DNA of 32,000 bases from an uncultured Planctomycetia bacterium (GTDB taxonomy: Bacteria; Omnitrophota; Gorgyraeia; Duberdicusellales; 4484-171), in assembly GCA_964536865.1 (NCBI GenBank), contig CAZHYN010000002.1:90001-122000 (forward strand), read 5' to 3'. A model generated the notes under the pieces. The model was given only the letters and a program-made list of their open reading frames with translations. It ran no database searches and was not told the DNA's origin. The translations under genes were made by a program, and so were the position numbers. Of this stretch, positions 681 through 31,979 are shown piece after piece. The first letter of the stretch is position 1, and each line of letters begins with the position of its first letter.

Positions 681-943
681 CTCTTACACACTCCATCATC
701 CGAGCAAGGCGGCCTATCGCAACGCTCACTTCTTCCACAACAGGTTCTTCCAGGAGAATTACTATTTTTATAATCAGTAGCGTAGAAGCCTGAGCCTTTA
801 AAAATGAAACCTGCCCCTCCTTCAATAAGACGCCTAACTTTCTGACCACACCGGGGACAAACTTTTACCGGCTCCTCACTCATACTTTGAAATTTCTCAA
901 ACCTATAACCGCACTCTTCACATAAATACTCATAAGTAGGCAT
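677..943 (-). CDS. FmdB-family (CxxC_CxxC_SSSS) zinc-ribbon protein with Cys-rich tail
   Basis: 88-aa ORF. MPTYEYLCEECGYRFE...CPRCG is the typical FmdB-type N-terminus. GSGFYATDY motif is present. The C-terminal tail TCCGRSERCDRPPCSDDGVC is Cys-rich. Confidence 0.75.
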   Translation of the reverse strand: MPTYEYLCEECGYRFEKFQSMSEEPVKVCPRCGQKVRRLIEGGAGFIFKGSGFYATDYKNSNSPGRTCCGRSERCDRPPCSDDGVCKR

Positions 944-953
944 TCTATCCTCC

Positions 954-1775: not shown

Positions 1776-1799
1776 TACTTCCCTCCTGAAAACAGAAAG

Positions 1800-3493: not shown

Positions 3494-3592
3494 AGTTTAT
3501 ATAATTTGATGATAAGCCATCATTATCTGCTAAAACTTATAAGATATCCCCAAAGAGGTGGGTCTTCTGGAGGATAAAACCTCTTCTATCTA

Positions 3593-3805
3593 TTACCCAC
3601 GAACCATCCTGGTTCCACACTTAGGACAATTCAAGCTATAACAAGGAACACCTACCTGATGAGGCACTCTCATCCCACAACTAGGACAAACACAATTTCC
3701 TCCTGGACCTGCACCGGGACGATTTCCACCCATTCTACCTCTACCTCTACCACCACCGCTGCCTCTACCTCCTCCAATTGGGCCTCTTCCATCTCCAAAA
3801 GGCAT
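3593..3805 (-). CDS. Small Gly/Arg-rich protein with C-terminal Cys-rich zinc-ribbon
   Basis: 70 aa. N-terminus MPFGDGRGPIGGGRGSGGGRGRGRMGG resembles a DUF5320-type head. C-terminus CVCPSCG...CPKCG. RBS AAAGGAGGTAAAAG lies upstream of the ATG. Confidence 0.6.
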   Translation of the reverse strand: MPFGDGRGPIGGGRGSGGGRGRGRMGGNRPGAGPGGNCVCPSCGMRVPHQVGVPCYSLNCPKCGTRMVRG

Positions 3806-3819
3806 CTTTTACCTCCTTT

Positions 3820-4137
3820 TTAGGCTCTACGAGAATCATTGGAAAGTTTATCTATTCGAGCTAAAACAGAAAAAAGGGTTTCTCTTAACTTCCCAAGTTC
3901 ATCTTTAATTTCTTTTACTTCTCTATCTTTATTTGCTTTTTCAGAAGAAACCATCCTTATTGCCTGAAATGGACAAAATCTTGTGCATACTCCGCAACCT
4001 ACACATTTATCCTCATCAATCCAGGGCCTCCCTCTCACCACTCTTATAGCACCTTGGGGACAACTCGAAATACACTGAAGACAACCCCTGCATATACTTA
4101 AATTAACTACAGCTTTTTTAGATTCTCTAATGCTCAC
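3820..4137 (-). CDS. 2x[4Fe-4S] ferredoxin with C-terminal amphipathic helix
   Basis: 105 aa. Motifs CRGCLQCISSCP and CVGCGVCTRFCP. C-terminal heptad-like segment EVKEIKDELGKLRETLFSVLARIDKL. 11-nt overlap with the upstream gene. Confidence 0.8.
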   Translation of the reverse strand: MSIRESKKAVVNLSICRGCLQCISSCPQGAIRVVRGRPWIDEDKCVGCGVCTRFCPFQAIRMVSSEKANKDREVKEIKDELGKLRETLFSVLARIDKLSNDSRRA

Positions 4138-4453
4138 ACTTATCTGCGCTTTCTTTAAGAACCCCTTTTATAAAATCGTCTATTACCTTATTGATTTCTC
4201 CCTCAGCAAAAATAACCTGGATATTTTTTTCTCTGAATAACTCCTGAGCTCTTGGACCCATACCTCCGCAGATTATCACATTTACCTCCATCTTTGAAAG
4301 ATATTCAGGCAAAAAACCTGGAGTATGACCAGGATTAGAAATAGTCTTTCTTTGCTTTACGCTTTGGCCCTCAGCATCAACAATCTCATACTCAAGACAT
4401 CTTCCAAAATGAGAACTTACTAAATCTCCCTCTTTAGCTATGGCTATCCTCAT
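4127..4453 (-). CDS. NifX/NifB-C-terminal-like (dinitrogenase FeMo-cofactor-binding fold) protein
   Basis: 108 aa. MRIAIAKEGDLVSSHFGRC...VIICGGMGPRAQELF matches the usual pattern of this small-domain family. 4-nt overlap with the upstream gene. Confidence 0.8.
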   Translation of the reverse strand: MRIAIAKEGDLVSSHFGRCLEYEIVDAEGQSVKQRKTISNPGHTPGFLPEYLSKMEVNVIICGGMGPRAQELFREKNIQVIFAEGEINKVIDDFIKGVLKESADKCEH

Positions 4454-5079
4454 TCTTCTGCTCCTTTCTCTAATTCCTGAATTCTTTTGTTTATTAGGCT
4501 CATCTGTTGTTTTAAAAAATCTAACTGCTGTTTTAAAAATTGAAGCTCCTGCTCTTTAGAAACTTGAGGTTGATTAACCTGAGGATAAAATCCTGGTTGA
4601 AAAAACCTTCCTCTTCCCATACCCATACCTCTTCCCATCCCAAAGCCAGGCATAAACCCTGGAGTTGAATAAGGTATATTTTGTTGAGGATTATTAGCTA
4701 ATGCAGAAGGTCCCATCATTCCAAAGTGGCCGAGAACATTAGGGTTAGGAGTGGGGTTGAGCTGGTTTTTTTTAAATTTATCTATGGCCTCTCTTACAGT
4801 TAAACCAGCTAAACCGGTAATAACCTGTATACCTGAAGCCTGAAATACTCCAAAAGAATTAGGTCCCACATTACCAGTCAATACTGCATTTACCCCTTTA
4901 TTGGCTATAAACTGGGCACTGGATATTCCTGCTCCTGAAGGAGAACTAATATTAGGATTAGAGAGACTTTCAAAACTATCCTTTTCTGTATCATAAATTA
5001 TAAAATAAGCACATCTTCCAAAACGAGGATCAACCAGAGAATCTAAATTTCCCCCCTGAGAAGTCACACATATCTTCAT
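4450..5079 (-). CDS. NifX-like domain fused to a low-complexity linker and DUF5320-like coiled-coil tail
   Basis: 209 aa. The N-terminal ~110 aa (MKICVTSQGG...DPRFGRC...GAGISSAQFIANKGVNAVLTGNVGPNSF) are NifX-like. Then comes GFMPGFGMGRGMGMGRGRFFQPGFYP, followed by KEQELQFLKQQLDFLKQQMSLINKRIQELEKG. Confidence 0.75.
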   Translation of the reverse strand: MKICVTSQGGNLDSLVDPRFGRCAYFIIYDTEKDSFESLSNPNISSPSGAGISSAQFIANKGVNAVLTGNVGPNSFGVFQASGIQVITGLAGLTVREAIDKFKKNQLNPTPNPNVLGHFGMMGPSALANNPQQNIPYSTPGFMPGFGMGRGMGMGRGRFFQPGFYPQVNQPQVSKEQELQFLKQQLDFLKQQMSLINKRIQELEKGAEE

Positions 5080-5145
5080 AAAACACCCCTCCTTCTAAAA
5101 ATTGGAAATCCTAAATTCCAATAATTTGGAACAAAGTTATTAAAA

Positions 5146-5466
5146 TTAAGATTCTAACTCCTGGACTCTTTTCTCAATCTGCTCAAGTTGGGCCTTCAAC
5201 GCCTCTGCTTGCTGTTTTAATAGCTGTAACTCCTGTTCTTTAGTAAGTTGAGATACTCCGTAAGGGTCAAAAGGCAAAAATTGGCCTCTTTGAGCCTGGG
5301 GCATATTCTGCCAAGCCCAATTCGCCTGCCAGGTAGGCCAACTCCCGGTCATTAGATACTGAGCCCCTGGAGGCAAAGTCCCCCAACCCGGAGAAAAACC
5401 AAACCTCATCCAGCCAGGTAAACCGGTAAGATAATACATATACCTGTTGCCTCTTCCTCCAACCAT
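5146..5466 (-). CDS. DUF5320-like small protein (W/G/P-rich head plus coiled-coil tail)
   Basis: 106 aa. The head is rich in W, G, P and Q. The tail TKEQELQLLKQQAEALKAQLEQIEKRVQELES is paralogous to the tails at 4450-5079 and 5527-5754. RBS GGGAGGTG lies upstream. Confidence 0.65.
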   Translation of the reverse strand: MVGGRGNRYMYYLTGLPGWMRFGFSPGWGTLPPGAQYLMTGSWPTWQANWAWQNMPQAQRGQFLPFDPYGVSQLTKEQELQLLKQQAEALKAQLEQIEKRVQELES

Positions 5467-5526
5467 ACTAACACCTCCCTCTCTTAGTTTGCAGCTCAGA
5501 ATCAGTAGCCTTGATTTATAAATTAA

Positions 5527-5754
5527 TTATTGGCCTCTCTCTAATTCCTGAATTCGGGCATCTATATCCTTAAGTTGAGCTTCTAAGTTTTGTCTTAATT
5601 GCCTCAAATAACTTAATTCATCCTGCCCAAAAAAGAAAGGAGAAACCCCCCCGAGATAAGGTAATCCATATCCGTAAGAAGCAGGCCAATAAGGATAAAA
5701 ATAAGGCATCATAAACCAACCTGCTGGACCCATCCCAAAAGGCATAACCATCAC
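5527..5754 (-). CDS. DUF5320-like small protein (Met/aromatic/Pro-rich head plus coiled-coil tail)
   Basis: The maximal ORF is 75 aa from a GTG at 5754. The G-rich SD (GGGGGGTG) is best spaced for the ATG at 5745, which gives MPFGMGPAGWFMMPYFYPYW... (72 aa). The tail is ELSYLRQLRQNLEAQLKDIDARIQELERGQ. Confidence 0.65.
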   Translation of the reverse strand: MMVMPFGMGPAGWFMMPYFYPYWPASYGYGLPYLGGVSPFFFGQDELSYLRQLRQNLEAQLKDIDARIQELERGQ

Positions 5755-5783
5755 CCCCCTTTTAAAAATTAAAAGCTGAAAAA

Positions 5784-6017
5784 TTACCTCGTCTGCCCCA
5801 AAGATTGATTACTTCCGTAACCAAAAGGTGTATAACTAAAAGGATTTATTGGCCCATATATACCTGTCCACCACCATCTGGGAAGCCAGGGAAACCACCT
5901 GCAGAAAGGATAAGGATTGCCTCTTCCCCAGCCAAAGTAAGGAAAGTAAGGATAGCCGTAGCCAAAATAACCCCACTTCCAAAAACCAGGACCCCAAAAA
6001 TTTCTTCCTCTAGGCAT
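5784..6017 (-). CDS. Small extremely aromatic/Gly/Pro-rich basic protein (no coiled-coil tail)
   Basis: 77 aa with 9 W, 9 F, 9 Y, 14 G and 11 P, and no Asp or Glu. N-terminus is MPRGRNFWGPGFW. A strong RBS (AGAGGAGGTGA) lies ~8 nt upstream of the ATG. A Fur-type operator lies 35 nt upstream. Confidence 0.55.
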   Translation of the reverse strand: MPRGRNFWGPGFWKWGYFGYGYPYFPYFGWGRGNPYPFCRWFPWLPRWWWTGIYGPINPFSYTPFGYGSNQSLGQTR

Positions 6018-6051
6018 TTTTAATCACCTCCTCTTTTAAATATCATTACCA

Positions 6052-6068
6052 TTGAAAATCATTTTCAA
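6052..6068. promoter_or_regulatory. Fur-family operator (8-1-8 palindrome TTGAAAATcATTTTCAA)
   Basis: Perfect inverted repeat between the fur stop codon (6087) and the start of the 77-aa gene (6017). The inner 7-1-7 TGAAAATnATTTTCA differs by one base per half-site from the Bacillus-type Fur box TGATAATnATTATCA. It may overlap a -35 TTGAAA. Confidence 0.6.
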
Positions 6069-6086
6069 CAATATATTAAAAAAAAA

Positions 6087-6536
6087 TTAGCTACAATTTG
6101 AACATAAACCGTAAAAATGAATTTGATGAGTCTCTATTTTAAAATTATGTTTTTTAGATAATCTTTCTTCTAAACCCTTTATTAATTTTTGTTCATCCTC
6201 TACAAAATCTTTATAATCAATTATCTTCCCACACTTTCTGCAAATTAAATGGTGATGATGTTCTATACCTGGTCCCTGGCTTAATTCAAATCTGGCCCTT
6301 CCGTCTCCAAACTCATATTTCCTTACCAGGCCCATATTAAAAAGAAGTTCTAAAGTTCTGTAAACTGTAGTAAGCCCTATCCCCGGATACCGCTTATGAA
6401 CTTTCAGGAAAATATCCTCAGCACTAAGGTGCTTTTTTTCTTTAGTCAAAACATCCAAGATAACCTGCCTGGGAAAAGTCCACCTAAAACCACAACCTCT
6501 AAATCTTGCTTCTAACCATCTCGGGCCAAAAGGCAT
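6087..6536 (-). CDS. fur: Fur-family metalloregulator (Fur/PerR/Zur subtype not resolved)
   Basis: 149 aa. Winged-helix N-domain (TFPRQVILDVL...HLSAEDI...TVYRTLELL). His cluster HHHHLICRKCGK. Two CxxC pairs (CRKC, CSNC) form a structural Zn site. RBS AAGGAAGGAG lies upstream. Confidence 0.9.
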   Translation of the reverse strand: MPFGPRWLEARFRGCGFRWTFPRQVILDVLTKEKKHLSAEDIFLKVHKRYPGIGLTTVYRTLELLFNMGLVRKYEFGDGRARFELSQGPGIEHHHHLICRKCGKIIDYKDFVEDEQKLIKGLEERLSKKHNFKIETHQIHFYGLCSNCS

Positions 6537-13013: not shown

Positions 13014-14822
13014 TTAAAGAAGCACCTCTTTTGCTTTCTGTAGTTGAGAGTAATTATACTCCCATAAACTTTTCTGAGGAGCTTGAAAAGTAAAATTATT
13101 GTAAGGAAAAACTAAAAAGTTTAGAAAATCATCCTTTAAAGAATTCAAAAAATTTAGATGACGGGATCTCATCTTCTCCAGAAGAACACTCACTGTAAGT
13201 TTACCTATACTAAGGCTCTCAGAAATCATGGAAACACTATCGCTAGAGACAAAAACAATCTCACTTAAAGAAACAAACGTTTCCATTATAAAAGGATAAT
13301 TTTTTTCTCTAACTACTATTAAAGACTCTAAATTAGGAAAGTTAGCTAAACTCTCTCTAATTATCTTCTCTACAGAAAGAGAAGTACGTCTTGAAGTAGA
13401 AACAAGTAGTTTATAGCCTTCAGTAAAGGAGAACTCTTTTAACCTACTCAGAAAAATTTTCAAATTCTCACAGAACTCCTCCTCTCTATGAAGAAAATTT
13501 CCTAAGAACAAAGAAATTTTCTTACACTCTCCTAAATTAAGAAATCTTTTGCCTTCCTCCACTTTTTTTTGAAGATCCTTAAAATGCGTTAATGCTCCTT
13601 TTATCTGCACTACATTCTTTCCTCTAACTCCATCATGATGAGGGACTATAACTAAATCGAATTTAGAAAGAGCTACATTGGGTTTTAAAATGCAACATGA
13701 CTTTGCTCCTAAACTTTTAGAATAAATAGCACATACCGGAGCACACAAAGAACCAGCACTCACTACTAAATCAAAAAAATTCTTCGACATAAACTCAGCA
13801 GTGTAGGAATCAAGAAAAAGTTTTAGACATCTACCACATCCTAAGCAATTCTTTGTTGAGAAAAAAGCAAAAATTTCTGCTAATAATCTGGCAAATCTAT
13901 TTTTGTAATTTATCTCCAATATATCTTTTTCTATAGAATAAGGAAGCTCCTCAAGCACATCTACCAAACTTAAAGACTGCTTAAGGTGACCGACCTTCCC
14001 ATCGGTAAGAATGAGAATTCTCCTCTTCTTTTTTCTCTTAAACCTTTTATACCACCAAAGATAGGACCAAGGGTAAGAAGTTAAGAAATCTTCAAAAACT
14101 TCGTTTATTTCTCTTAATATTTCTCTACTCTCCCTTCCTTCACAATCTATAGGCTTCTCTATAATTCCTATATGATAGTTACCTTCTCTATATCCAAAAG
14201 CAGGATAAATTTTTCTTCCAAATTTCTTAGCTAAATACACTGCCCCCCCAGGAGTAGGAACAGGGATATTAAAAAAATCTACAATCTCAGAATTTTTCTC
14301 TGCTCCATGATCCGCTACCATCCCTACCCACCAGTTTTTTTTAAGTAGTTTTACAACTTCTTTTAAAGAAGTGCATATCTTTAAACTACTCTTCTCTCTA
14401 AGTTCATTTAAAAATTTATTCATAGCAGGGTTTCTCTGCTCTCTAACAAAGATAGCGTATTTAAACCTGTCTGCTAAACAACTATTATAAAGCTCCCAAC
14501 TCCCCTCATGGATGCCTACTAAAATATTTCCCCAAGGAGGCAAAGCTTCTCGGAATTGAATGCGAACTCTATTTTTTAATCTATCTACGATAAGTGTTTC
14601 TATAAAACTTATCCCAAAAGAGATAAAACTCTTTCTGATGATGGAAAATATAGACTTATTAGTTTTTTTAGGAAATACTTGCTTTAAGTTTATAAAGGCA
14701 ATTCTCTTTTTTTTCTTATCAAAGTAGTAAAATCCTAACCCTACTACTTTCCCTAAGGCCAAAGAAAGAGATAGAGGTAATAATCTAACCAACCTATAGA
14801 CTAACCTTATCAGTAAGTACAT
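13014..14822 (-). CDS. Lipid A late acyltransferase (LpxL/HtrB family) fused to an ELM1/DUF1022-like domain
   Basis: 602 aa. The N-terminal ~260 aa have a TM anchor and the HX4E catalytic dyad (GIHEGSWE) of the LpxL/LpxM family. The C-terminal ~340 aa begin RRILILTDGKVGHLKQSLSLVDVL, which resembles ELM1-family proteins. Confidence 0.7.
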   Translation of the reverse strand: MYLLIRLVYRLVRLLPLSLSLALGKVVGLGFYYFDKKKKRIAFINLKQVFPKKTNKSIFSIIRKSFISFGISFIETLIVDRLKNRVRIQFREALPPWGNILVGIHEGSWELYNSCLADRFKYAIFVREQRNPAMNKFLNELREKSSLKICTSLKEVVKLLKKNWWVGMVADHGAEKNSEIVDFFNIPVPTPGGAVYLAKKFGRKIYPAFGYREGNYHIGIIEKPIDCEGRESREILREINEVFEDFLTSYPWSYLWWYKRFKRKKKRRILILTDGKVGHLKQSLSLVDVLEELPYSIEKDILEINYKNRFARLLAEIFAFFSTKNCLGCGRCLKLFLDSYTAEFMSKNFFDLVVSAGSLCAPVCAIYSKSLGAKSCCILKPNVALSKFDLVIVPHHDGVRGKNVVQIKGALTHFKDLQKKVEEGKRFLNLGECKKISLFLGNFLHREEEFCENLKIFLSRLKEFSFTEGYKLLVSTSRRTSLSVEKIIRESLANFPNLESLIVVREKNYPFIMETFVSLSEIVFVSSDSVSMISESLSIGKLTVSVLLEKMRSRHLNFLNSLKDDFLNFLVFPYNNFTFQAPQKSLWEYNYSQLQKAKEVLL

Positions 14823-21698: not shown

Positions 21699-22322
21699 AT
21701 GAAAGACGAAATGGATATCTTAAAAGAAGTAGGAAACACCGCTGCTGCTCATGGTAGTATTGCTCTCTCAGAAATCTTAGGGAAAAAAATCAAACTTCAT
21801 CTTCCTGTTGTAGACATAATTCCTTGCAAGAATATAGGAAAAGCAATGCCTCAGGAAGGAATGAGTATAACTCTACAAACTCAACTCTTAAGTGGTTTAG
21901 ATGGGAAAGTTGTTTTTATTTTGGAGGAAAAGCAAGCCTACAAACTTATCGATATATGCTATACAGGGGGAGAGATCAAAAAAACTGGAATATTTACGGA
22001 AATGGGAATGAGTCTAATAAAAGAAGTAGGAAATGTAGTTATTGCTAGTTACATAAGTGCTTTAGGGTTCTTTCTAAGAAAATTAATTGTTCCCTCTCTA
22101 CCTATACTTATAAATGCTCCACTCCAAGAGATTATAAAACTTGTAGTTGCCGGTTACGGGGAACATGACTACGTATTGGTAGTAGAGAGTATCTTTGAAG
22201 AGTCAGAAACTAAAATAAAAGGGACTTTCTGGCTCCTTCTTGCTCCTGATTCTGTAAAGCAGATAAAGGAAGCTTGTAAGAAGCTGTTAGAAGAAGTAGG
22301 TAAAAATGATGGAGGAAACTAG
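21699..22322 (+). CDS. cheC: CheC-family CheY-P phosphatase (both active-site motifs intact)
   Basis: 207 aa. Two copies of D/S-x3-E-x2-N-x22-P are present: DILKEVGN...(22)...P and SLIKEVGN...(22)...P. RBS GGGAGGAGG. 17-nt overlap with the downstream REC-GGDDF gene. Confidence 0.8.
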   Translation: MKDEMDILKEVGNTAAAHGSIALSEILGKKIKLHLPVVDIIPCKNIGKAMPQEGMSITLQTQLLSGLDGKVVFILEEKQAYKLIDICYTGGEIKKTGIFTEMGMSLIKEVGNVVIASYISALGFFLRKLIVPSLPILINAPLQEIIKLVVAGYGEHDYVLVVESIFEESETKIKGTFWLLLAPDSVKQIKEACKKLLEEVGKNDGGN

Positions 22323-23238
22323 TAACATCTTAATCTTTACTCCGGATTCCGAACTAAAGGAGTATATCCAAAAACTTATCAAAGGAGAAGGTTATGAGGT
22401 GGATGAAGTCAATCAATTAGAGATGCTTCAGGAGAAGCTATCTCAAGAGAAAGTGGGACTTCTTCTCATTGATTCCATGGGAAGCAGTACCATAGATATA
22501 TGTAAAAAAGTAAGATCTGATTTTACGTTACGCCATATTCCTATAATTGTAATAGTGGAAAAGGAAAGTACTATAGAAAAGATAAAAGTTATTTATGCGG
22601 GAGCTGACGACTATGTAGAAAAACCTATTAATGCAGGAGAGTTGCTTATACGGATAAAAGCAAACCTTTGGCGAGCTAACCGTGACTTAGATGCCAATCC
22701 TTTAACCAAACTTCCTGGTAATGTTTCTATATTTAGGGAGTTAGAAAAGAGACTAAGAAACAAAGAATTTTTCTGTGTAGGATATGCGGATTTAGATAAG
22801 TTTAAAGAATACAACGACTACTATGGATTTGAGTGGGGAGACAAAGTAATAAAACATACAGCTAAAATTTTAACTAATGCTCTAAAAGAAGCAGGTTCAC
22901 CCAACGATTTTCTTGGACATATAGGAGGTGACGATTTCATCTTTATTACCGGCTGGGAAAGTATTAATAATGTATGCGAAAATATCATAGAGAACTTCGA
23001 TAAAACTATTCCTTCCTTCTATAAAGAGGAAGATTTAAAAAAGAGATATATTATTGTAAAAAACCGTTTAGGGAAAGTAACTTCTGTCCCTATACTCACA
23101 ATCTCCATTGGAGTAGCTACTAATGAAAAGAGATCTTTAGCTCACGTGGGTCAAATAATTCAAATAGCTACGGAATTAAAAACCTACGCTAAAACTTTTT
23201 CTAAGAGCTTGTATATAATCGATCGTCGAAGAGGTTAA
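22306..23238 (+). CDS. Receiver-domain protein with GGDEF-type domain carrying a non-canonical GGDDF motif
   Basis: 310 aa. The REC-like N-domain keeps the acceptor Asp context LLLIDS and the Lys in YVEKP. The acidic pair is replaced (ILIFTPDSE) and the T/S position is Val. The GGDEF-like domain has NPLTKLPGN and [11 protein letters not shown]. The signature is GGDDF (nt 22924-22938) and there is no RxxD I-site. Confidence 0.75.
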
Positions 23239-24857
23239 CTACCTTCAAACTTAAATTTCTTCATTAACTCTTCCACTGACTTCGCTAGTTCACTTAGCTG
23301 CTGTGCTGAACTGACCATCTCTTCCATAGAGGTAGTCTGCTCCTGGATAGAAGCACTAGCTTCTTCTACTCCTGCAGATGTCCCTTCAATGATAGAGGCT
23401 ACCTCCTCTACTGCCTTTACTCCTTCTTCAGTTCGAGCAAGCTGCTCAGATATGACTTTTACTATCTGCTGAGCCATAGTATTGGCTTCATTTACCGAAG
23501 AAATCACTTCCTTTAAAGTATTTCTTACCTCTATTACTACGTTTCTTCCTTCAGTTACTTCTTTGGAACCAATCTCTATAGAAGAAATCGCTTTACCTAT
23601 ATCTTCCTGAATACTCTTTATCAAACCACCAATACGGCTAGCAGCTTGAGCAGAATTTTCTGCTAACTTTCTTATCTCATCAGCAACTACACCAAAACCT
23701 CTTCCTGCTTCTCCAGCACGTGCTGCTTCAATGGCAGCATTCAAGGATAAAAGATTAGTTTGGTCAGCAATATTAGTAATGGTAACAGTGATCTCTCCAA
23801 TCTGTTGAGACCTTTCCTCTAAGATACGCATAACCTCCACGTTTTTATTTACCGTATCAAATACTCTATCCATTTTTTCTGATAAAGTGGGAATTTTCTC
23901 TCCACTTAAATTTACTTGAGAAGCTGCAGAAGCAGAAACATCAGCGGTGTTTTTTGCCTTATCACCAACTTCTCTTAAGGATACATTAACCTCTCCCATA
24001 ATCCTAGATACATTTTCCACCTTAACTGTCTGGTCAGTAACGCCCTTGGAGAGTTGAGCCATGGCAGCACTTATCTGCTGTATAACTTCACTCATCTGAT
24101 GAGTTATATCTACAAACTGATGAGACGTCTCACTAATCTTTCTCCCCACTCTGCTGATTTCTAAAAGCGTGCCTTTCCAGAAAGAAACTATCTTATTTAG
24201 AATGTTATTCAGTTTCCCTACTTTCTCTATACTTTTCTCTATTTCCTTAGGAAATCTTCCCTCTGCTATCTCTTCAAAGATAGAAACGAAACGATCAATA
24301 GGATGAAAAAGACGAGCAGAGAGGAATTTTACTAAAAAGAAAACTAACACCACTCCTGCCAAGAGAGGAATCACAATAGTAGTTGCTACCTTAGAAACTG
24401 CTTTTGTTACTATCTTAGAATTTTTGACTAAGGAGAGGAATCCCAATAGCTTACCTTCTTCGTCCTTTATAGGATGAAGAACACCAATCACTCTGTAGCC
24501 TAAGAGTTTCTCTATCCTCTCCTTATCTAGTTTGTTAATATCTATACTCTTATCTAACAATTTTGGGCTGCTACTAATTTCCACTCTTCCTTTCCTATCA
24601 GTAACAGCAACTACAAAATTCTGTAAAGTTTTGCTAAAAACTTTCAGGCTATCCTCTATTCCAGACTTACCCTCCTTAACCCACCTATTACTTACCGCAG
24701 CCTCTAAAACTTTTGCTAAATTCTTTAAAGCTTCTCCTTCTCGACTATAAATAACACTCTTTTGGTAGAAAAAACTAACTACACCCATAATAAAGAAAAA
24801 TATGCACAGAACAGTGGTAATCCAAATAGTAATTTTATCCTTCAAAAATTTTGGCAC
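23235..24857 (-). CDS. Methyl-accepting chemotaxis protein (two TM segments, periplasmic sensor, HAMP, MA domain)
   Basis: 540 aa with a GTG start behind AAGGAGG. TM1 is [23 protein letters not shown] and TM2 is [21 protein letters not shown]. The conserved hairpin tip is [32 protein letters not shown]. Confidence 0.9.
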
Positions 24858-24992
24858 CCCGCCCTCCTTGTTAACAACTTTTCTCGTTCATCAAAATTAT
24901 ATTTAAAAAAAGACGCACTCCCCCCTTTAAGGCAAAGTTTCAGGATAACACTTCCTTATCCAGAAAATTAGGCTTCTAAATTAACTAGGAAA

Positions 24993-25286
24993 TTAAGCTT
25001 CTAAAGGTAGTGTACTTACTTTCTCAAATTCAACTGCTACTTCCCACATCCCTTCCTTTTCCATCACTCTACTAACTTTACCTCTAACAAAGAAAGAACC
25101 TATAGTGGGAAGAATTTTGAACTCTCCGTAGATAATCGAACCTATCTCCACAGGGCGAGAAAGGTTAATCTTCATTCCTCCTGCGCTAATATCAACGACC
25201 TTCCCTTCTTCTCTTACCCCCGCACAGGAAATAACTGCCTTCTCCTCCTCTACGTACCAACGATTAAATTTGCGTCTCTCTTCCAT
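24993..25286 (-). CDS. Stand-alone PilZ-domain protein (canonical c-di-GMP-binding motifs)
   Basis: 97 aa. RxxxR motif (RKFNR) at the N-terminus and DxSxxG (DISAGG) about 25 residues later. Confidence 0.8.
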   Translation of the reverse strand: MEERRKFNRWYVEEEKAVISCAGVREEGKVVDISAGGMKINLSRPVEIGSIIYGEFKILPTIGSFFVRGKVSRVMEKEGMWEVAVEFEKVSTLPLEA

Positions 25287-25302
25287 CTTTTATCCCTCCT
25301 TT

Positions 25303-25926
25303 CTATTCACCTTCTTTAACTCCTAAAGCCTTAAATAATTTCCTTAAAGATTCTAAATCAGGAAAAAATAAAAGGCAACCCCCAAAATCCATATCTCTTA
25401 CTTTTAATTCTGTTCTTATAAAAATGGCTTCATCGCTATGCTGAGCTATATGGATGAAAAAAAAGTCCATTATTGCTCCCACCATATCCATAGCTAATGA
25501 GGGGGTAGTATACATTATAGTAAAACCAGTCATATCAGAAAGAACATTCATATAAGCTCCTACTAAAATGTTAACCATTTCTCTCAAAGAGGAAAGGAAC
25601 ATGCCATCGTTAAGGTCTACTTCCTCAGGAGGTTTCCCTAACAGAGTGCTCCCTAGGATCTTACCCTCTTGAGGTGCTAAAAGAAAGAATACCCTACCAG
25701 AGATTTCTCCCTCTACCCCAATATCTAAAACAAAATATAAATCTTCCGGATTACCCAAAACTTTATGGAGAGACTCTAAAGGTACTAATTTTGTCTCAGG
25801 GAGAGTAATCTCTACTTTGCAATTAAGAAGCTCAGCTAAAGCAGTAGCGGATCTACCTGCTCCGATAGTCCCTACTTCTTTAAGAACATCTAACTGGTTC
25901 GAAGAAATTTTTTTAGTTTCATCCAT
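25303..25926 (-). CDS. cheC: CheC-family protein (first active-site motif degenerate, second intact)
   Basis: 207 aa. Site 1 is DVLKEVGT...(22)...P, with Asn replaced by Thr. Site 2 is SSLREMVN...(22)...P and is intact. 8-nt overlap with cheB. Confidence 0.75.
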   Translation of the reverse strand: MDETKKISSNQLDVLKEVGTIGAGRSATALAELLNCKVEITLPETKLVPLESLHKVLGNPEDLYFVLDIGVEGEISGRVFFLLAPQEGKILGSTLLGKPPEEVDLNDGMFLSSLREMVNILVGAYMNVLSDMTGFTIMYTTPSLAMDMVGAIMDFFFIHIAQHSDEAIFIRTELKVRDMDFGGCLLFFPDLESLRKLFKALGVKEGE

Positions 25927-26953
25927 CTTTCAAATATTCTAAAATTTTGTCAGGTATTTTACTTACAGGTAAAATTTCATCAGCCAATTTTGCCTCTATT
26001 ACTGCCCTAGGCATCCCATAAACCACACAACTTGCCTCATCCTGAGCAATTATCCTACCTCCTTTTTCTTTCACCTTCCTTGCTCCTTCTAACCCATCTT
26101 TACCCATTCCAGTAAGAATTACCACTACTATCTCACCATCAAATACTTCCGCCAAAGAAGTTAAAGTCACGTCTATCGCTGGTCTTACATAGTTTACCAA
26201 TGCTGTCTCATCTAATCTTATGCAATAACCCTCTAGGGCCTTTTCTATCATCATATGATATCCTGAGGGAGCTACAAATCCTGCTCCTTTTATAAGAAAA
26301 TCCCCATCTTCGGCTTCCTTTATCTTGATATTTGAATACCACGAAAGTCTCTCAGCAAAACTTCTGGTAAATCCTGGGGGCATATGTTGAATAATCAGAA
26401 AAGTATAATCACAGTAGGAAGGAAATGTTTGCATTAAATCTAGTATGGCTTTAGGGCCACCAGTAGAAGCGCCTATTGCCACTATCTTTTTTACTGCTAG
26501 TTTCTCTTTATCAACGACTTTCTCTACCGTTAGAGAAAGAAACTTATTTAAATCTACCCTAGCAGTTAACTTAATCTTGGAGATTATTTCCTCTCTAAAA
26601 TTATATAAATCTAAGGATACTTCCCCGCTAGGTTTAGGAATGAAGTCCAATGCTCCAAGTTCTAACGCTTTCATAGTAACTTTTGCCCCTCTCTGGGTAT
26701 AGGCGGAGAGCATAACTACTCGTGTAGGGAAATTATGCATAAGTTCTTCTAGTACTTTCAACCCACTTATATCAGGAAGATTTACATCCAAGGTCACTAC
26801 ATCGGGCTTCAGCTCTGGAATCCTTTGGAGAGCCTCTCTTCCCAACTTAGTAGATCCTACCACTTCTATTTGAGGCTCACTGGATAAAATATCTCCTATT
26901 ACTTTCTGCATTAAAATTGAATCTTCTACAATAAAGACTCTTACTTTTCTCAT
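25919..26953 (-). CDS. cheB: Chemotaxis response regulator protein-glutamate methylesterase
   Basis: 344 aa. REC domain (VFIVEDS, VTLDVNLP). Esterase domain with GASTGGP, IIQHMPPGFT and LTGMGKDG motifs. Confidence 0.92.
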   Translation of the reverse strand: MRKVRVFIVEDSILMQKVIGDILSSEPQIEVVGSTKLGREALQRIPELKPDVVTLDVNLPDISGLKVLEELMHNFPTRVVMLSAYTQRGAKVTMKALELGALDFIPKPSGEVSLDLYNFREEIISKIKLTARVDLNKFLSLTVEKVVDKEKLAVKKIVAIGASTGGPKAILDLMQTFPSYCDYTFLIIQHMPPGFTRSFAERLSWYSNIKIKEAEDGDFLIKGAGFVAPSGYHMMIEKALEGYCIRLDETALVNYVRPAIDVTLTSLAEVFDGEIVVVILTGMGKDGLEGARKVKEKGGRIIAQDEASCVVYGMPRAVIEAKLADEILPVSKIPDKILEYLKDG

Positions 26954-27447
26954 ACTTCTTTTTCTCCCTGAAACATCGTCTTTATTCTAACTTTGCCTGT
27001 ATCTAAATCAAAGAAAATAGTTCTTCCGTAGCTACCCCCAGTATCCTCTCCTACAATTTTGATCCCATGAGAAGCCAAAATCTCTCTTGCCTTATCGATA
27101 TTTTTACCTCCTACATTAAAAGGGCTATCTAAAGGAATAGAACTAAACATATGAGCTCCACCGAAAAGTTTTGCTACCAGTTGATGAGGTTGAACCCCCC
27201 GCTTCTTTAACTCATCAATCATAATGCCCACGGCAGAATCTACATACTTAGCAGGGTTAAACTTAGCTTTCGCATCAGCGATAGAAGGCAACATAGCATG
27301 AGCTAAAGCTCCTATCTTTTTTCTAGGTTCATAGACAGCGATACCAATACAAGATCCTAACCCCCGAGTGACGAGTACATCTGGAAAGCTTCCTACTCTT
27401 ACCTCTGCCATACCTACTTCTATAAGATTACCTTTCCTTGCCTCCAT
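26950..27447 (-). CDS. cheD: Chemoreceptor glutamine deamidase CheD
   Basis: 165 aa. GLGSCIGIAVYE (catalytic Cys context), ALAHAMLP and KLFGGAHMF motifs. Confidence 0.9.
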   Translation of the reverse strand: MEARKGNLIEVGMAEVRVGSFPDVLVTRGLGSCIGIAVYEPRKKIGALAHAMLPSIADAKAKFNPAKYVDSAVGIMIDELKKRGVQPHQLVAKLFGGAHMFSSIPLDSPFNVGGKNIDKAREILASHGIKIVGEDTGGSYGRTIFFDLDTGKVRIKTMFQGEKEV

Positions 27448-27462
27448 GTTGAGAGATTTCTC

Positions 27463-27837
27463 CTATTCTCCTAACACTCTCCTTATAGCTTCTACAACAC
27501 GAGATGGCTGAAATGGTTTTACGATAAAGTCCTTAGCTCCTGCCTGAATTGCTTCTACTACTAAAGCGTGCTGGCCCATAGCAGAAACCATTACAATTTT
27601 AGCATTAGGATCAATCCGCATAATCTCCTTTACCGCTCCAATCCCATCGATCTCTTCCATCTTAGGCATAACAATATCCATTGTAACTAAATCTGGCTTT
27701 AACTCCTTATACTTCTCAATCGCCTCTTTACCATTCTCTGCTTCGCCACAAATTTCAAAACCTTCTTTCTTTAAGATGTCTCCTAGCATCCTACGCATGA
27801 AGAGAGCATCATCAACTATTAAGATTTTTGTCGGCAT
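27463..27837 (-). CDS. cheY: Chemotaxis response regulator CheY
   Basis: 124 aa, single REC domain. ILIVDDALFMRR, LVTMDIVMP, VMVSAMG and FIVKPF are present, so all canonical phosphorylation-site residues are retained. Confidence 0.9.
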   Translation of the reverse strand: MPTKILIVDDALFMRRMLGDILKKEGFEICGEAENGKEAIEKYKELKPDLVTMDIVMPKMEEIDGIGAVKEIMRIDPNAKIVMVSAMGQHALVVEAIQAGAKDFIVKPFQPSRVVEAIRRVLGE

Positions 27838-27866
27838 ACTAACCTCCTTTTTAACCTCGCCCTTTT

Positions 27867-28712
27867 CTATATCTTAACAAATATTTTATCAAGTAGACTT
27901 ACAGGTTTAAAATAATTCCTTAGAGAAACACCTACACTCTCTACTTTCCCGAGAACTAAGTATCCTCCCTCCTTTAAGGACTTATGTACCTCTAAGAGAA
28001 TTCTCTCGCTTTCCTCTAAACTAAAATATATTCTTACATTTCTAAAAAAGACCACATCTATAAACTTTAAGGGTGGGTCAAATAGTAAGTTGTGTTTTCT
28101 AAAAGTAACCACTTCCTTTAAAGTATCTTTAACTTGATAAAGCCCTTTGCCTAAGGGAGTAAAATACTTATTTAAAATTAGAGGATCTACATTCCTCAAA
28201 GATCTCTCTGAGTAAATACCTTCCCTGGCTTTCTTTAAAGCTTGCTCATCAATATCGGTACCGTATATTTTTAAAACAAACTTATCGTTTATATTTATAT
28301 TTTTTAACTTCTCCAAAAAAATAATTGCTAAAGAATAGGGCTCCTCCCCACAAGAACACCCAGATGACCAACACCGTATCGTTTTCTCTCTTTGCTCTCT
28401 TTTCCTCTCTATTAGAGAGGGGATACAGATATCTCTAAACGTAGCAAAGACTTCGGGATCACGGAAAAGTTCAGAAACATTTATACTGAGGTTATCAAAA
28501 AAAATATCCCATTCTTGAGGTTGTTTTTTTAATATCTGAATATAACCCAATAAATTATCCAAACCTAAATGGCTAAGTCTTAGCTTCAGTCTGCGGGTAA
28601 GAAAGCTTTTTCTATAGGAGGTTAAGTCTATTCCTCGATGTTTCCTTACAAAATTAAAGAAAAGGTCAATCTCATGGGAAGAAAAAAAATCTTTCTTTTC
28701 CACTTCCACCAT
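27867..28712 (-). CDS. cheR: Chemotaxis protein methyltransferase CheR
   Basis: 281 aa. N-terminal helical domain. SAM-binding block IRCWSSGCSCGEEPYSLAI. FRNVRIYF motif. Confidence 0.9.
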   Translation of the reverse strand: MVEVEKKDFFSSHEIDLFFNFVRKHRGIDLTSYRKSFLTRRLKLRLSHLGLDNLLGYIQILKKQPQEWDIFFDNLSINVSELFRDPEVFATFRDICIPSLIERKREQREKTIRCWSSGCSCGEEPYSLAIIFLEKLKNININDKFVLKIYGTDIDEQALKKAREGIYSERSLRNVDPLILNKYFTPLGKGLYQVKDTLKEVVTFRKHNLLFDPPLKFIDVVFFRNVRIYFSLEESERILLEVHKSLKEGGYLVLGKVESVGVSLRNYFKPVSLLDKIFVKI

Positions 28713-28716
28713 GCTT

Positions 28717-28980
28717 TTAATGTTGGGGAGCCTTTTTAACCTTCTCTATTGCCTTGGTGAGCTCTTTAACTACATCAGCTCTAAGCTGAAGTTCAAGTTC
28801 AGCTATTTTAGTGTATACTCTCCCTTTATCGGTAACCACATATTTAGAGGGGAGATTATTTAAAGCTAAAGCCATTATATCCAATGTACACTTTTCACAT
28901 TTGCATACATCGTTTCTTCTGGAAAGTAAATTTTCCAAAGTATTTTTCACTATATCCTCCATGTAATTATGGCATTCCAT
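28717..28980 (-). CDS. ComFB-family (late competence development protein ComFB-like) small protein
   Basis: 87 aa. NYMEDIVKNTLENLL...CKCEKCTLDIMALALNNLPSKYVVT matches the ComFB-family pattern. Four Cys (C3, C26, C28, C31) are positioned for a Zn site. RBS AAGGAGGTGGATA lies upstream. Confidence 0.7.
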   Translation of the reverse strand: MECHNYMEDIVKNTLENLLSRRNDVCKCEKCTLDIMALALNNLPSKYVVTDKGRVYTKIAELELQLRADVVKELTKAIEKVKKAPQH

Positions 28981-29003
28981 TATCCACCTCCTTAGAAAAT
29001 AGT

Positions 29004-29032
29004 AGTATAAAATTAATTATTTTATACGTCAA
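29004..29032 (-). promoter_or_regulatory. Candidate internal sigma70 promoter upstream of comFB-cheR-cheY-cheD-cheB
   Basis: The minus strand reads TTGACG (29032-29027), a 17-nt spacer, then TATACT (29009-29004), 23 nt before the comFB ATG. AT-rich DNA raises the chance of a spurious match. Confidence 0.4.
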
Positions 29033-29057: not shown

Positions 29058-30977
29058 TTACTTTATATTAACTACATCCAAGATTAAAGCTATCCGACCG
29101 TCACCTAAGATAGTTCCTCCTGCAATCCCTCTTATTCTTTTAACGAAGGAACCCAAAGGTTTTACTACAATATCCTGCTCACCTATCACTTTATCTACAA
29201 CCAGACCCATACTTTTTGTTCTACCTTCTACTATCACTACCGAGATTTCTTCCTTCTCGTAAGTAGCTAATGTCTTCATCCCTAACTCCTTATCTAACCT
29301 AAGAATAGGAACAATCTCTTCTCTTACACGCATCACTTCTATATCTTTTATTCTTTTTAGCTCCGCTTCTTTTACCTTTACTGTCTCTCGGATGTTCATA
29401 AGAGGAATAGCATAAATCTGTTCTCCAATAACGACTAACATAGCTTTTATAATAGCTAAAGTTAAAGGTAAAGTAAGAATAAATTTTGTTCCCTTCCCTC
29501 GCTGCGTCTCCAAATCCAATCTTCCTCCCAGAGCATCTAACTTGTTACGTACTACATCTAATCCCACTCCTCGGCCTGATACATCAGTCACTTTCTCACT
29601 GGTAGAGAAACCAGGCATAGTAAGGATATCTAAAATTTGACGATAGTCATTTTTGGAAACCTCTTGAGGAGAAATTAGTCCTTTTTCTGCTGCAGCAGCT
29701 ACCACCTTATCTATATCTATCCCCCTCCCATCGTCACTAATCTCTATTATAATATGACCCTTCTCTCGGGATACTTTGATAAGTATCTTACCACGGGGGG
29801 GTTTACCTATTTTCCTTCTCTCTTGAGGAGTCTCTATTCCATGGTCTATAGCATTTCTAATAAGGTGTACTAAAGGATCACCTATCTCATCTAAAACTAC
29901 CCTGTCTAACTCTATCTCACTGCCCACTATGTCTAAATCTACCTCCTTACCTTCTTTCCGAGATAGATCTCTTACAATCCGAGGGAAATTATCCAGGATA
30001 TAAGAAACAGGTAAGAGCCTCATCTTCAATGCCTCATCCTGAAGAGAAGAGACCAATCTTTCGATAAGATAAGTGGTCTCTTCTAAAGCTGTATAATCCT
30101 TGCTTATTACAGTCTGAGTAAGTCTACTTTTAGTAATAGCTAACTCCCCCATCAGATTCATAATCTTATCTAATCGCTCTACCGGTATCCGCATACTCTG
30201 AATCTTCTTAATATAAGGGGTAGTTTTTCCTTTTTTTCTTTCTACTTTCTCAGCAGAAGAAGTGAATTTAGAAACTCTAATCTCCTTAACTTCTAAAATC
30301 TTAGAAACTTCTTCTTTGATTTTTTCTGGCGGTTCCTTAGTAGCCAAAAAGAAATGAAATGAATTTCCAAATGTACCGGCTTTCAACTTATCCTCAGAAG
30401 GGATAACCTGGATTATTTGACCTAACATTCTCACTCTCTTAAGAATAAGAAAGGCCCTTGCCCCTTTAAGAAGACAGTCATCTTGCAGGGTTACTTCCAC
30501 TTTTAAGAGTTCCTTATTCTCCTTCCTTAACTTTTTAATATACTCCTCATCTATGTGTGTTGGATATTCCTGAAGAACTTGAGGATATTCTTTTCTCTCT
30601 TCTTTAGAGACTAAACTACTTAACCTTACTAAATAGGAAGGAATATCTACAGATATAGGTTTCTCTTCTCTTAACTCCTCTACAACAGTAGTAAAGGCAT
30701 CGATACTCTCAAAAACAACATCCATTATCTCAGGCGTCAGTGTTGATTTACCAGACCGGAAATTATCAAAAGTGTCCTCTAAATGATGAGCAAACTCTGC
30801 CAACTCTTTATATCCCATAGTTGCTGCCATCCCTTTAAGGGTATGCATATGTCGGAATATCTCATTTATGGATTGTTCATCATGAGGATTCTTTTCTAAA
30901 TTAACTAAAGCTTTATTTATCTCCTTCAGATACTCTTGGGACTCACTGAAGAATAGCTCACGATAATTCTTTTCCAT
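29058..30977 (-). CDS. cheA: Chemotaxis histidine kinase CheA
   Basis: 639 aa. Hpt domain with FRHMHTLKGMAA. Dimerisation region, then HATPase (HLIRNAIDHGIE, DDGRGID, GRGVGLDVV). C-terminal CheW-like domain. Confidence 0.95.
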   Translation of the reverse strand: MEKNYRELFFSESQEYLKEINKALVNLEKNPHDEQSINEIFRHMHTLKGMAATMGYKELAEFAHHLEDTFDNFRSGKSTLTPEIMDVVFESIDAFTTVVEELREEKPISVDIPSYLVRLSSLVSKEERKEYPQVLQEYPTHIDEEYIKKLRKENKELLKVEVTLQDDCLLKGARAFLILKRVRMLGQIIQVIPSEDKLKAGTFGNSFHFFLATKEPPEKIKEEVSKILEVKEIRVSKFTSSAEKVERKKGKTTPYIKKIQSMRIPVERLDKIMNLMGELAITKSRLTQTVISKDYTALEETTYLIERLVSSLQDEALKMRLLPVSYILDNFPRIVRDLSRKEGKEVDLDIVGSEIELDRVVLDEIGDPLVHLIRNAIDHGIETPQERRKIGKPPRGKILIKVSREKGHIIIEISDDGRGIDIDKVVAAAAEKGLISPQEVSKNDYRQILDILTMPGFSTSEKVTDVSGRGVGLDVVRNKLDALGGRLDLETQRGKGTKFILTLPLTLAIIKAMLVVIGEQIYAIPLMNIRETVKVKEAELKRIKDIEVMRVREEIVPILRLDKELGMKTLATYEKEEISVVIVEGRTKSMGLVVDKVIGEQDIVVKPLGSFVKRIRGIAGGTILGDGRIALILDVVNIK

Positions 30978-30983
30978 AATGAT

Positions 30984-31589
30984 TTAAATTTCGGTAGCTT
31001 TAAGAAGAATCTCCAAGCCCTTAGGATTGGGTAGGAGAAAAAAATGTCCGGTAACTTTTGTTGTGGCTTCACTAAACTCTGATTTTATAAGTAAAGCGTA
31101 AGGAGAAATATTACTCAATTCTATAAGAATGTAATCTACCATTGCTCCTGCCATATCCTCAATAACTTCAGGGACGGTGGGAACAAGTCCCCACTTTACA
31201 AACACGGAGAGTGCTCCCAGATAAGCGTTGGCTAGAATCACTCCTATTTCTTTAAGAGCTGAACGTTCCATATCAGTTATTACTCCTCCGTTAGATGACT
31301 TTCTATTAGTTAACAGAGAAGCTAATCCTAACGCATCTTTATGGGAAAAGATAAGAAGAATCACACTGGGAAAGTCACCTAGAATTCTTACAATTAACCC
31401 TACAACTAATTTCTCTTCTCCTACAATTTGAGGAACTTTCTCCACAGGAAGAAAATAAATTTCGGGGACATTTATTTCTATTTTCTTATTGGTAAGTTGA
31501 GATAGAGCAGTAGCAGCGTTACCTGCACAGATATTCCCAATTTCTCTTAGAGCATCTTTTTGAAACTCATCGAACTTTATCTCTTCCAT
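30984..31589 (-). CDS. cheC: CheC-family protein (first active-site motif intact, second degenerate)
   Basis: 201 aa. Site 1 is DALREIGN...(22)...P and is intact. Site 2 is SALKEIGV...(22)...P, with Asn replaced by Val. Confidence 0.75.
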   Translation of the reverse strand: MEEIKFDEFQKDALREIGNICAGNAATALSQLTNKKIEINVPEIYFLPVEKVPQIVGEEKLVVGLIVRILGDFPSVILLIFSHKDALGLASLLTNRKSSNGGVITDMERSALKEIGVILANAYLGALSVFVKWGLVPTVPEVIEDMAGAMVDYILIELSNISPYALLIKSEFSEATTKVTGHFFLLPNPKGLEILLKATEI

Positions 31590-31979
31590 CTACTTATTTT
31601 CCGAAGAGATGGCTTTCTTTATTACCTCCAAGAGCTTCTCTGCAGTAAAGGGTTTAATCACGAAGTCCTTAGCCCCATAAGCTAAAGCCTCCTGAACCAA
31701 TCTCCTATCCCCCAAAGCGGAAATAACCACAATTTTTGCCTCAGGATCAAAGGATATAATTTCCCTTACTGCACTAATCCCATCCATTTCTTCCATCATA
31801 GGCATTACAATATCCAAAGTAACTAAATCTGGATTGAGCTCCTTATACTTCTGCACTCCCTCTAAGGCGTTGGATGCTTCTCCACAGATCTCAAAACCTG
31901 CCTTTACTAGAATATCCCTTATAAGATTTCTCATGAATAAAGCATCATCAACTATTAATACACGTTTCCTCTCCATCAT
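31590..31979 (-). CDS. cheY: Chemotaxis response regulator CheY (second paralog)
   Basis: 129 aa, single REC domain. VLIVDDALFMRN, LVTLDIVMP, VVISALG and FVIKPF are present. The start may be the second ATG (31976). Confidence 0.9.
   Translation of the reverse strand: MMERKRVLIVDDALFMRNLIRDILVKAGFEICGEASNALEGVQKYKELNPDLVTLDIVMPMMEEMDGISAVREIISFDPEAKIVVISALGDRRLVQEALAYGAKDFVIKPFTAEKLLEVIKKAISSENK

Follow-up and report, generated by a model that had tools for sequence, protein, structure and literature searches.

Gene content and organization of the chemosensory locus

We analysed a 32,000-nucleotide stretch of DNA from an uncultured Planctomycetia bacterium (Omnitrophota in the GTDB lineage and, judged by the names of protein homologs, Candidatus Omnitrophota; assembly GCA_964536865.1, contig CAZHYN010000002.1, positions 90,001 to 122,000), hereafter the window, and focused on a chemosensory (che) gene cluster that also encodes putative receptors and a putative source of the second messenger cyclic di-GMP (c-di-GMP). 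Judged from open reading frames (ORFs) and Pfam/NCBIfam matches, the right third of the window is one minus-strand chemosensory operon with the gene order cheY, cheC, cheA, comFB, cheR, cheY, cheD, cheB, cheC, pilZ and mcp, the last encoding a methyl-accepting chemotaxis protein (MCP). A plus-strand pair, cheC-c and a REC-GGDEF-type gene (receiver plus cyclase-type domain), the two overlapping by 17 nt, converges on the 3' end of the operon. The genes are, beginning with the first gene of the operon:

31590-31979, minus strand: CheY-type single-domain response regulator (NCBIfam CheY_Halo, E=1.6e-30)
30984-31589, minus strand: CheC paralog a, first active-site motif only (Pfam CheC, E=1.6e-18; CheC_Thtogales, E=4.6e-43)
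29058-30977, minus strand: CheA histidine kinase with C-terminal CheW-like domain (NCBIfam CheA, E=1e-145)
28717-28980, minus strand: stand-alone ComFB-family protein, 87 aa, predicted cyclic dinucleotide (c-di-NMP) receptor (PF10719, E=1.5e-27)
27867-28712, minus strand: CheR methyltransferase, likely partner of ComFB (CheR_N and CheR, E=5.5e-52)
27463-27837, minus strand: second CheY-type response regulator (Response_reg, E=4.4e-31)
26950-27447, minus strand: CheD (PF03975, E=5.8e-33)
25919-26953, minus strand: CheB methylesterase (NCBIfam PRK00742, E=2e-120, above cutoff)
25303-25926, minus strand: CheC paralog b, second active-site motif only (Pfam CheC, E=2.1e-15; CheC_Thtogales, E=8.7e-50)
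24993-25286, minus strand: stand-alone PilZ protein, 97 aa, predicted c-di-GMP receptor (PF07238, E=7e-12)
23235-24857, minus strand: MCP with two transmembrane segments, HAMP and MCPsignal domains, a strain-variable accessory gene (MCPsignal, E=2.3e-40)
21699-22322, plus strand: CheC paralog c, both active-site motifs intact (Pfam CheC, E=1.5e-6; CheC_Thtogales, E=2.4e-25)
22306-23238, plus strand: REC-GGDDF protein with WspR/DgcR architecture (GGDEF, E=2e-15; REC, E=4.4e-12)

The initial annotation had placed a ComFB-family gene between cheA and cheR and a stand-alone PilZ gene with intact RxxxR and DxSxxG motifs between cheC and the MCP gene; the coordinates of both are right, as are the PilZ domain and motifs, and hidden Markov models (HMMs) matched all three families concerned, PilZ, ComFB and GGDEF. 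With moderate confidence we read the locus as a complete chemosensory cluster with connections to c-di-GMP at its output as well as at its input, the circuit proposed below included. The evidence consists of family membership, conservation of motifs and active sites, predicted folds, synteny and ComFB-CheR fusions.

Genes follow one another closely: 4 nt separate the stop codon of comFB from the start of cheR, and 8 nt are common to cheB and cheC-b. An AGGAGG ribosome-binding site is found upstream of each of comFB, pilZ and mcp. The converging mcp and cyclase genes end in one TTAA palindrome (23235-23238), in which their stop codons overlap, with no space for terminators. Identical copies of the locus are present in two public assemblies (relatives are referred to by locus number; here L006 and L007), and the identical CheA of L006 has the domains Hpt/P2/H-kinase_dim/HATPase_c/CheW. 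The gene 5' of the operon in L006 and L008 is an unrelated acyl-CoA dehydrogenase. The second CheY is the best-conserved protein of the cluster (78-96% identity among relatives). The promoter and terminator scan gave fewer matches than shuffled controls and was not used, and Rfam and tRNA scans of the window returned nothing, a c-di-GMP riboswitch included.

Linkage of comFB to cheR

ComFB is the third widespread c-di-GMP receptor family and was recognised as such only in 2023-2025. To our knowledge no direct protein target of a ComFB protein has been established. For the synteny survey, one genome per GTDB species was scanned with a ComFB alignment, and the best 80 ComFB loci among 416 relatives were then searched by tblastn with the window proteins. 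In 15 of these 80 loci (L011-L018, L020, L023, L024, L068, L070, L072 and L078), comFB lies directly 5' of cheR within the order cheY-cheC-cheA-comFB-cheR-cheY-cheD-cheB-cheC. The 15 loci, which share this synteny, are labelled Omnitrophota or 'uncultured Planctomycetia/bacterium' metagenome-assembled genomes; across these species-representative genomes ComFB identity is ~54-91% and CheR identity 37-87%, and comFB always immediately precedes cheR, whatever else differs. The same arrangement, comFB directly 5' of cheR, is found on metagenome contigs. L060 has the order comFB-cheY-cheC-cheC, and no che genes were detected near comFB in the other 64 of the best 80 loci, which include Actinomycetota, Bacillota, Goldbacteria, Firestonebacteria and FCPU426. 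Among the ComFB relatives, the clostridial L004 adjoins pilin genes, and comFB has also been reported beside pilin genes in Thermoanaerobacterales (PMC12448109).

Because comFB and cheR are neighbours in 15 species-level genomes, even where ComFB identity falls to ~54%, we judge from the gene order that their adjacency is not a matter of chance. The occurrence of comFB inside a CheC/CheD-type che operon, noted by the initial annotation for this one genome, is in other words not unique to it. Moreover, two loci encode ComFB-CheR fusions, L003 (363 aa) and L094 (370 aa), and L003 carries a separate comFB and cheR pair in addition to its fusion; a Candidatus Omnitrophota ComFB-CheR fusion (UniProt A0A1G1PT98) has been noted in one sentence (PMC12448109). 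The fused ComFB domains are without equivalents of N41, R/K42 and Y47, and that of L003 is also without D34; therefore the fusions argue for a ComFB-CheR link more than for ligand control of that link. That these genes are functionally linked to the adaptation machinery, as had been suspected, is thus backed by synteny in 15 species together with the fusions. The operon context of comFB seen here is not described in the accessible part of PMC12448109, and in the literature we did not find a stand-alone comFB-cheR pairing within a CheC/CheD-type operon described.

Predicted ligand and zinc residues of ComFB

The window ComFB matches PF10719 over the full length of the model (1-83/83) with 95.9 bits against a cutoff of 25. 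Its alignment with B. subtilis ComFB (4WAI, E=8.9e-6) is gap-free, and its match to the cyanobacterial c-di-GMP receptor 8HJA is weak (E=0.04). Members of the family have been shown experimentally to be receptors for c-di-GMP/c-di-AMP that control motility (PMC12448109, PMC12265714), and the statement of the initial annotation that ComFB-family proteins bind c-di-GMP or c-di-AMP was right. Residues were checked against the list of Samir et al. (PMC12448109) in B. subtilis (Bs) numbering, where the c-di-GMP contacts are Asp33, Asn40, Arg/Lys41, Ala36, Leu37, Val47 and Tyr55. The window protein retains the dimer and ligand residues N5, E8, D34, A37, L38, N41, Y47, V48 and Y56; of the 8 residues listed for c-di-GMP contact and the dimer, it has 7. 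The zinc triad C26/C28/C31 (corresponding to Bs Cys25/27/30) is invariant in the family alignment, as is H87, a candidate fourth zinc ligand.

At the position of the Bs Arg/Lys41 contact most other che-linked ComFB homologs have R or K, and the window protein, like its closest relative P0001, has Asn42 and so is without one of three electrostatic c-di-GMP contacts. This residue bears on an alternative in which ComFB would be a ligand-independent, zinc-binding accessory or adaptor of CheR, for example one that tethers CheR to receptors without a C-terminal pentapeptide, with c-di-GMP sensed by PilZ only. Consistent with such a role, the fused domains have been retained with most ligand contacts lost, and what is invariant in the ComFB alignment is the Cys3-His site along with N5 and E8, two residues of the dimer. 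Also, the C-terminus of the window MCP reads ...KFKFEGS, and an NWETF-type pentapeptide is missing there. However, stand-alone che-linked ComFBs keep D34, A37, N41, Y47, V48 and Y/F56 and mostly have R or K at 42, and every ComFB tested to date bound c-di-GMP (PMC12448109). We consider an adaptor role improbable and treat ComFB as a predicted c-di-GMP receptor that would act on CheR.

The REC-GGDDF protein and the CheC paralogs

The catalytic motif of the putative cyclase is GGDDF (residues 207-211), which departs from the canonical [G/A/S]G[D/E]E[F/Y]; in its 120 closest homologs the motif is GGDDF 114 times and GGDDY 4 times. The protein aligns over both domains to Leptospira DgcR (6ZXM, E=6.5e-18), and its AlphaFold2 (AF2) model, with a predicted local distance difference test (pLDDT) score of 91, has WspR as best fold match (3BRE, E=6e-20), followed by DgcR and PleD and by more than 40 further diguanylate cyclase structures. 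D162, K167, N170 and D179, corresponding to PleD D327, K332, N335 and D344, do not vary among 117 homologs, nor do the downstream lysines K292 and K296; by our own motif alignment, from which these equivalences are taken, K296 equals PleD K442 and K300 occupies the R446 position. Because the metal, phosphate and guanine contacts and GGDDF itself are invariant across the homologs, the motif looks like the result of selection on catalysis and not of decay. With Asp kept at the guanine-specifying position (D179), the product is predicted to be c-di-GMP. No RxxD I-site was found: the residues here are S-P-N-D and the position is variable without Arg across the family, an I-site not being required for catalysis. 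By Pfam, there is also no EAL or HD-GYP partner domain.

Two other assignments were considered and rejected. A Cas10-like cyclase was suggested by a weak Pfam Cas10 palm2 match and the GGDD residues; no Cas10 is among the top 50 fold matches, and the idea was dropped because the model matches diguanylate cyclases only and N170 and D179, which specify guanine, never vary. A Hypr-GGDEF enzyme making cyclic GMP-AMP (cGAMP) would have Ser at the specificity position, where the window protein has Asp. The Geobacter sulfurreducens Hypr-GGDEF protein GSU1937 shares the GGDDF motif (PMC8835794); it is a membrane protein with the Hypr Ser348 cGAMP signature, in contrast to the Asp (D179) and the receiver domain seen here. 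In the literature we found no published active GGDDF enzyme other than GSU1937, and no description of a GGDDF cyclase family.

The REC-GGDDF protein could instead be catalytically inactive and act in the Che pathway as a sink for phosphate or as an effector that binds GTP, the messenger sensed by PilZ and ComFB coming from other cyclases. The Asp in place of Glu as fourth residue of the motif, the H at the position of PleD R366 and the atypical receiver are in line with this. It is at odds with the invariance of the metal, phosphate and guanine contacts and of GGDDF in 117 homologs, with the lack of both an I-site and an EAL/HD-GYP partner domain, and with the demonstrated activity of the GGDDF domain of GSU1937 (PMC8835794). 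We accordingly give an inactive protein little probability and proceed with the REC-GGDDF protein as a putative diguanylate cyclase.

The phospho-acceptor of the receiver is D56 (codon at 22471-22473); across the 117 family members this position is D in 102, E in 13 and N in 2, while D14 and K106 are mostly conserved. Some members of the REC-GGDDF family may be constitutively 'on' or need no phosphorylation. With regard to the CheC proteins, a motif scan for the D/S-x3-E-x2-N-x22-P sites recovered both in CheC-c, only the first in CheC-a and only the second in CheC-b. Each cheC gene abuts a gene for a receiver-domain protein (cheC-a abuts cheY1, cheC-b abuts cheB and cheC-c the cyclase gene), which, with the active sites complementing one another, suggests one dedicated CheC phosphatase per phospho-acceptor, and cheC-c is translationally coupled to the cyclase gene.

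REC-GGDDF genes accompany the che cluster in the window and in L003, L008-10, L014 and L020. The cheC plus REC-GGDDF pair is present in L003, L008-10, L014, L020 and L095 and recurs in at least six distinct relatives. This co-occurrence suggests that the pair belongs to the same circuit and is a likely source of the messenger. The initial annotation had described a CheC phosphatase and a REC-GGDEF-type protein converging on the operon; location and domains were correct, the motif is GGDDF and not GGDEF, and the pair appears to be more than a neighbour.

The PilZ protein and the variable MCP gene

The PilZ motifs are R5-K-F-N-R9 and D32-I-S-A-G-G37. All 27 members of this PilZ family have R5, R9, D32 and G37, conservation of S34 is at least 90%, and a C-terminal FxKVSTxP tail is common to them. 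The AF2 model (pLDDT 77) is a bare six-strand barrel without a C-terminal helix. At least the 30 top PDB matches of the model are PilZ domains, many of them c-di-GMP-bound, and they include BcsA, VCA0042, Alg44, MapZ in complex with CheR1, PlzA, MotI and YcgR. A sequence search against the PilZ proteins of the PDB gave no match. The protein was also considered as a MapZ orthologue; this was not upheld, with no sequence match in the PDB and a MapZ fold match (TM 0.58) that is not better than the others. Among the loci surveyed we saw neither fusion nor strict adjacency of pilZ and cheR.

The presence of pilZ in relatives was scored with the PilZ HMM. The gene directly follows cheC-b in L001, L003/L023, L006-L011, L014, L017, L020 and L078. 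A second cluster subtype (L012, L015, L018, L068 and L072) gave no match, and some of its members have cheW or unrelated genes after cheC-b in place of pilZ. The second subtype has further genes of its own, an extra CheC-like gene and a gene for a 712-715 aa protein between cheA and comFB, the gene for the long protein lying between cheC and comFB (L012 5861-7999; L072 5854-8001; also L024 and L068). By eye, the N-terminus of the 712-715 aa protein looks FtsA/PilM-like and is followed by a long uncharacterised C-terminal region.

The window MCP gene is present in L006 and L007 and absent in L008-L010, whose ComFB is ~90% identical and whose Che proteins are ~83-96% identical (cf. 13985-14313 in these loci). 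Proximity of pilZ to the MCP gene was considered as the key signal and discarded, as the MCP gene is gone in close relatives. The argument made at first from the position of PilZ next to the receptor gene is accordingly weak, the MCP being strain-variable and PilZ missing from the second subtype. A hint of PilZ-MCP proximity nevertheless comes from distant PilZ relatives (42-47% identity), which again lie tail-to-tail with an MCP gene, outside che operons (L091 10001-12119; L092 10001-12015).

Re-association of the components in relatives

The same components recur in other arrangements. In L014 and L020, cheC and the REC-GGDDF gene directly follow pilZ in the same direction and thus lie within the operon, and in L003 a cheC-REC-GGDDF-cheW group converges on the che genes. 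In the more distant Omnitrophota L094, genes for the ComFB-CheR fusion, a REC-GGDDF protein and PilZ are consecutive, with cheW and mcp converging on them, and in L095 cheC-REC-GGDDF converges on pilZ-cheW, apart from any main che operon. ComFB/CheR, the cyclase with its CheC, PilZ and array proteins thus occur in at least four different gene orders. Judged by gene order, such recurrence is the signature of a functional module and chance is ruled out. Because the arrangement is conserved across many related species, the pathway probably both makes and reads c-di-GMP.

Type IV pilus genes (pilin, PilC, PilM, PilO, secretin) flank the cluster in L003 (134-5988 and 18301-20267) and L094 (1-3929), which hints at pili rather than flagella as the output of the pathway; the literature on Omnitrophota motility offered nothing usable on flagella versus pili. 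A GNAT acetyltransferase gene also recurs at the che cluster (L001 6725-7177; L006 4631-5089; L008 5324-5782). In L001 it lies between cheW and cheC, and in the close relatives of the window it stands two genes ahead of cheY; the enzyme may be linked to Che protein acetylation.

An output organelle is central to an alternative in which the two receptors would read global c-di-GMP and act on a flagellar motor or type IV pilus, their placement among che genes reflecting co-expression only. B. subtilis ComFB inhibits flagellar function (PMC12265714), the PilZ proteins YcgR and MotI, both among the fold matches, act on motors, members of the PilZ family occur outside che clusters, and the pilus genes in L003 and L094 and the pilin genes beside clostridial comFB homologs point the same way. 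On the other side stand the ComFB-CheR fusion in two lineages, the position of comFB always just before cheR in 15 species, and PilZ near REC-GGDDF, CheW and MCP genes even without motility genes close by. On balance we find it unlikely that the receptors serve the organelle only.

Proposed circuit and comparison with known systems

In the most economical model we propose, a Wsp-like output is combined with a MapZ-like feedback. CheA would pass phosphate to both CheYs, to CheB and to the receiver of the REC-GGDDF protein. The latter would act as a response-regulator diguanylate cyclase of the WspR kind and be dephosphorylated, and so reset, by the coupled CheC-c. The product c-di-GMP would be read by the two small operon-encoded receptors: ComFB would act on CheR, and thereby on receptor methylation and adaptation, and PilZ on a partner that could be a Che component, CheW or the MCP, or the motility organelle. 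A feedback loop would thus close among kinase activity, second-messenger level and adaptation. From the genes and their conservation we infer the activity of the cyclase, phosphotransfer from CheA to its receiver, nucleotide binding by ComFB and PilZ, contact between ComFB and CheR, and the direction of regulation. In its full form, that is, a self-contained loop of a kinase-driven GGDDF cyclase with its own CheC, ComFB-CheR feedback and PilZ at the array, the model is offered tentatively, as one possibility.

Several observations weigh against the proposed circuit. PilZ is missing from ~5 of 11 assessable clusters, and family members also occur away from che genes, e.g. in L093 beside groEL. 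As to ComFB, the ligand residues lost from the fused domains and the Asn at the Arg/Lys41 contact in the window protein and P0001 belong here. GGDDF, the H for PleD R366 and the K for R446 are non-canonical, owing to which cyclase activity may be low or altered; moreover, the Thr/Ser of the receiver is always V/M/I, Glu stands at the phospho-acceptor in 13 of 117 members, and in L001 and L078 REC-GGDDF does not adjoin the cluster. Finally, no flagellar or pilus genes were found in the window, so that an output organelle is not indicated.

Each element of the circuit has a precedent. The receptors of the ComFB/CdgR type (PMC12448109) share with the window protein the Pfam family, the zinc-binding cysteines and the majority of ligand and dimer residues; they too are small stand-alone proteins with a motility-related context, and the phylum with a CheR fusion is the same. 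In contrast to these, comFB is here a separate gene in a full cheA...cheC operon, directly before cheR, PilZ and a dedicated cyclase are encoded alongside, and the R/K41 contact is Asn.

For the control of CheR the precedent is MapZ (PA4608), a P. aeruginosa PilZ protein that inhibits CheR1 (PDB 5XLY/5Y4R). Both systems would have a small single-domain c-di-GMP receptor controlling a methyltransferase. They differ in that the protein tied to CheR here is ComFB, of unrelated fold, and not PilZ; the PilZ model aligns to MapZ (E ~7e-4), no closer than to other PilZ domains, and unlike MapZ is without a C-terminal helix.

For the output, WspR is the cyclase of the Wsp chemosensory pathway (PDB 3BRE). 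That pathway too is Che-like and comes with a gene for a REC-GGDEF response regulator, and WspR is the top structural match of the cyclase model. Compared with Wsp, however, the motif is GGDDF here and GGEEF there, the RxxD I-site is lacking, the cluster is of the CheC/CheD type with a dedicated CheC-type phosphatase and two CheYs, and receptors of the product are encoded in the operon. With the CheY-P phosphatases CheC/CheX/FliY and the CheC-CheD systems of B. subtilis and T. maritima the locus shares the active-site motifs, carried here by three CheC paralogs, and CheD; unlike in the known CheC systems, one CheC is coupled to a response-regulator cyclase and not to CheY. In the literature we did not find comFB-cheR together with PilZ and a dedicated, CheC-coupled GGDDF cyclase described.

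Other genes in the window

The remaining genes are of the usual housekeeping kind and encode Fe-S and NifX-like proteins, Fur, lipopolysaccharide (LPS) core and lipid A functions and shikimate kinase, as well as a XerC/D-type recombinase, topoisomerase I and DprA, the last three assigned via Pfam matches of the L008 homologs. The region 168-6536 encodes two MinD/ParA-like P-loop proteins with inserted 4Fe-4S domains, a NUBPL/Mrp-type ATPase, a ferredoxin, two NifX/NifB-like (Nitro_FeMo-Co) proteins, two DUF5320 proteins and Fur. Within it, a segment of ~600 nt (5467-6086) has no ORF of at least 80 aa, and the 1-kb bin 5001-6000 has the highest GC content in the window (0.42).

Implications

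The adjacency of comFB and cheR in 15 species, together with the fusions, nominates CheR as a testable and first concrete candidate target of a ComFB protein. If the proposed circuit is true, CheR would be the first ComFB target protein, convergent with the PilZ (MapZ)-CheR1 case, and a slow chemical memory would be added beside methylation. The GGDDF family, of which more than 100 members were found, would broaden the accepted catalytic motif if active. With the predicted writer (REC-GGDDF and CheC), the predicted readers (ComFB and PilZ) and the chemosensory core within ~10 kb, this compact locus would suit the study of how a second messenger is integrated with phosphorelay and methylation.

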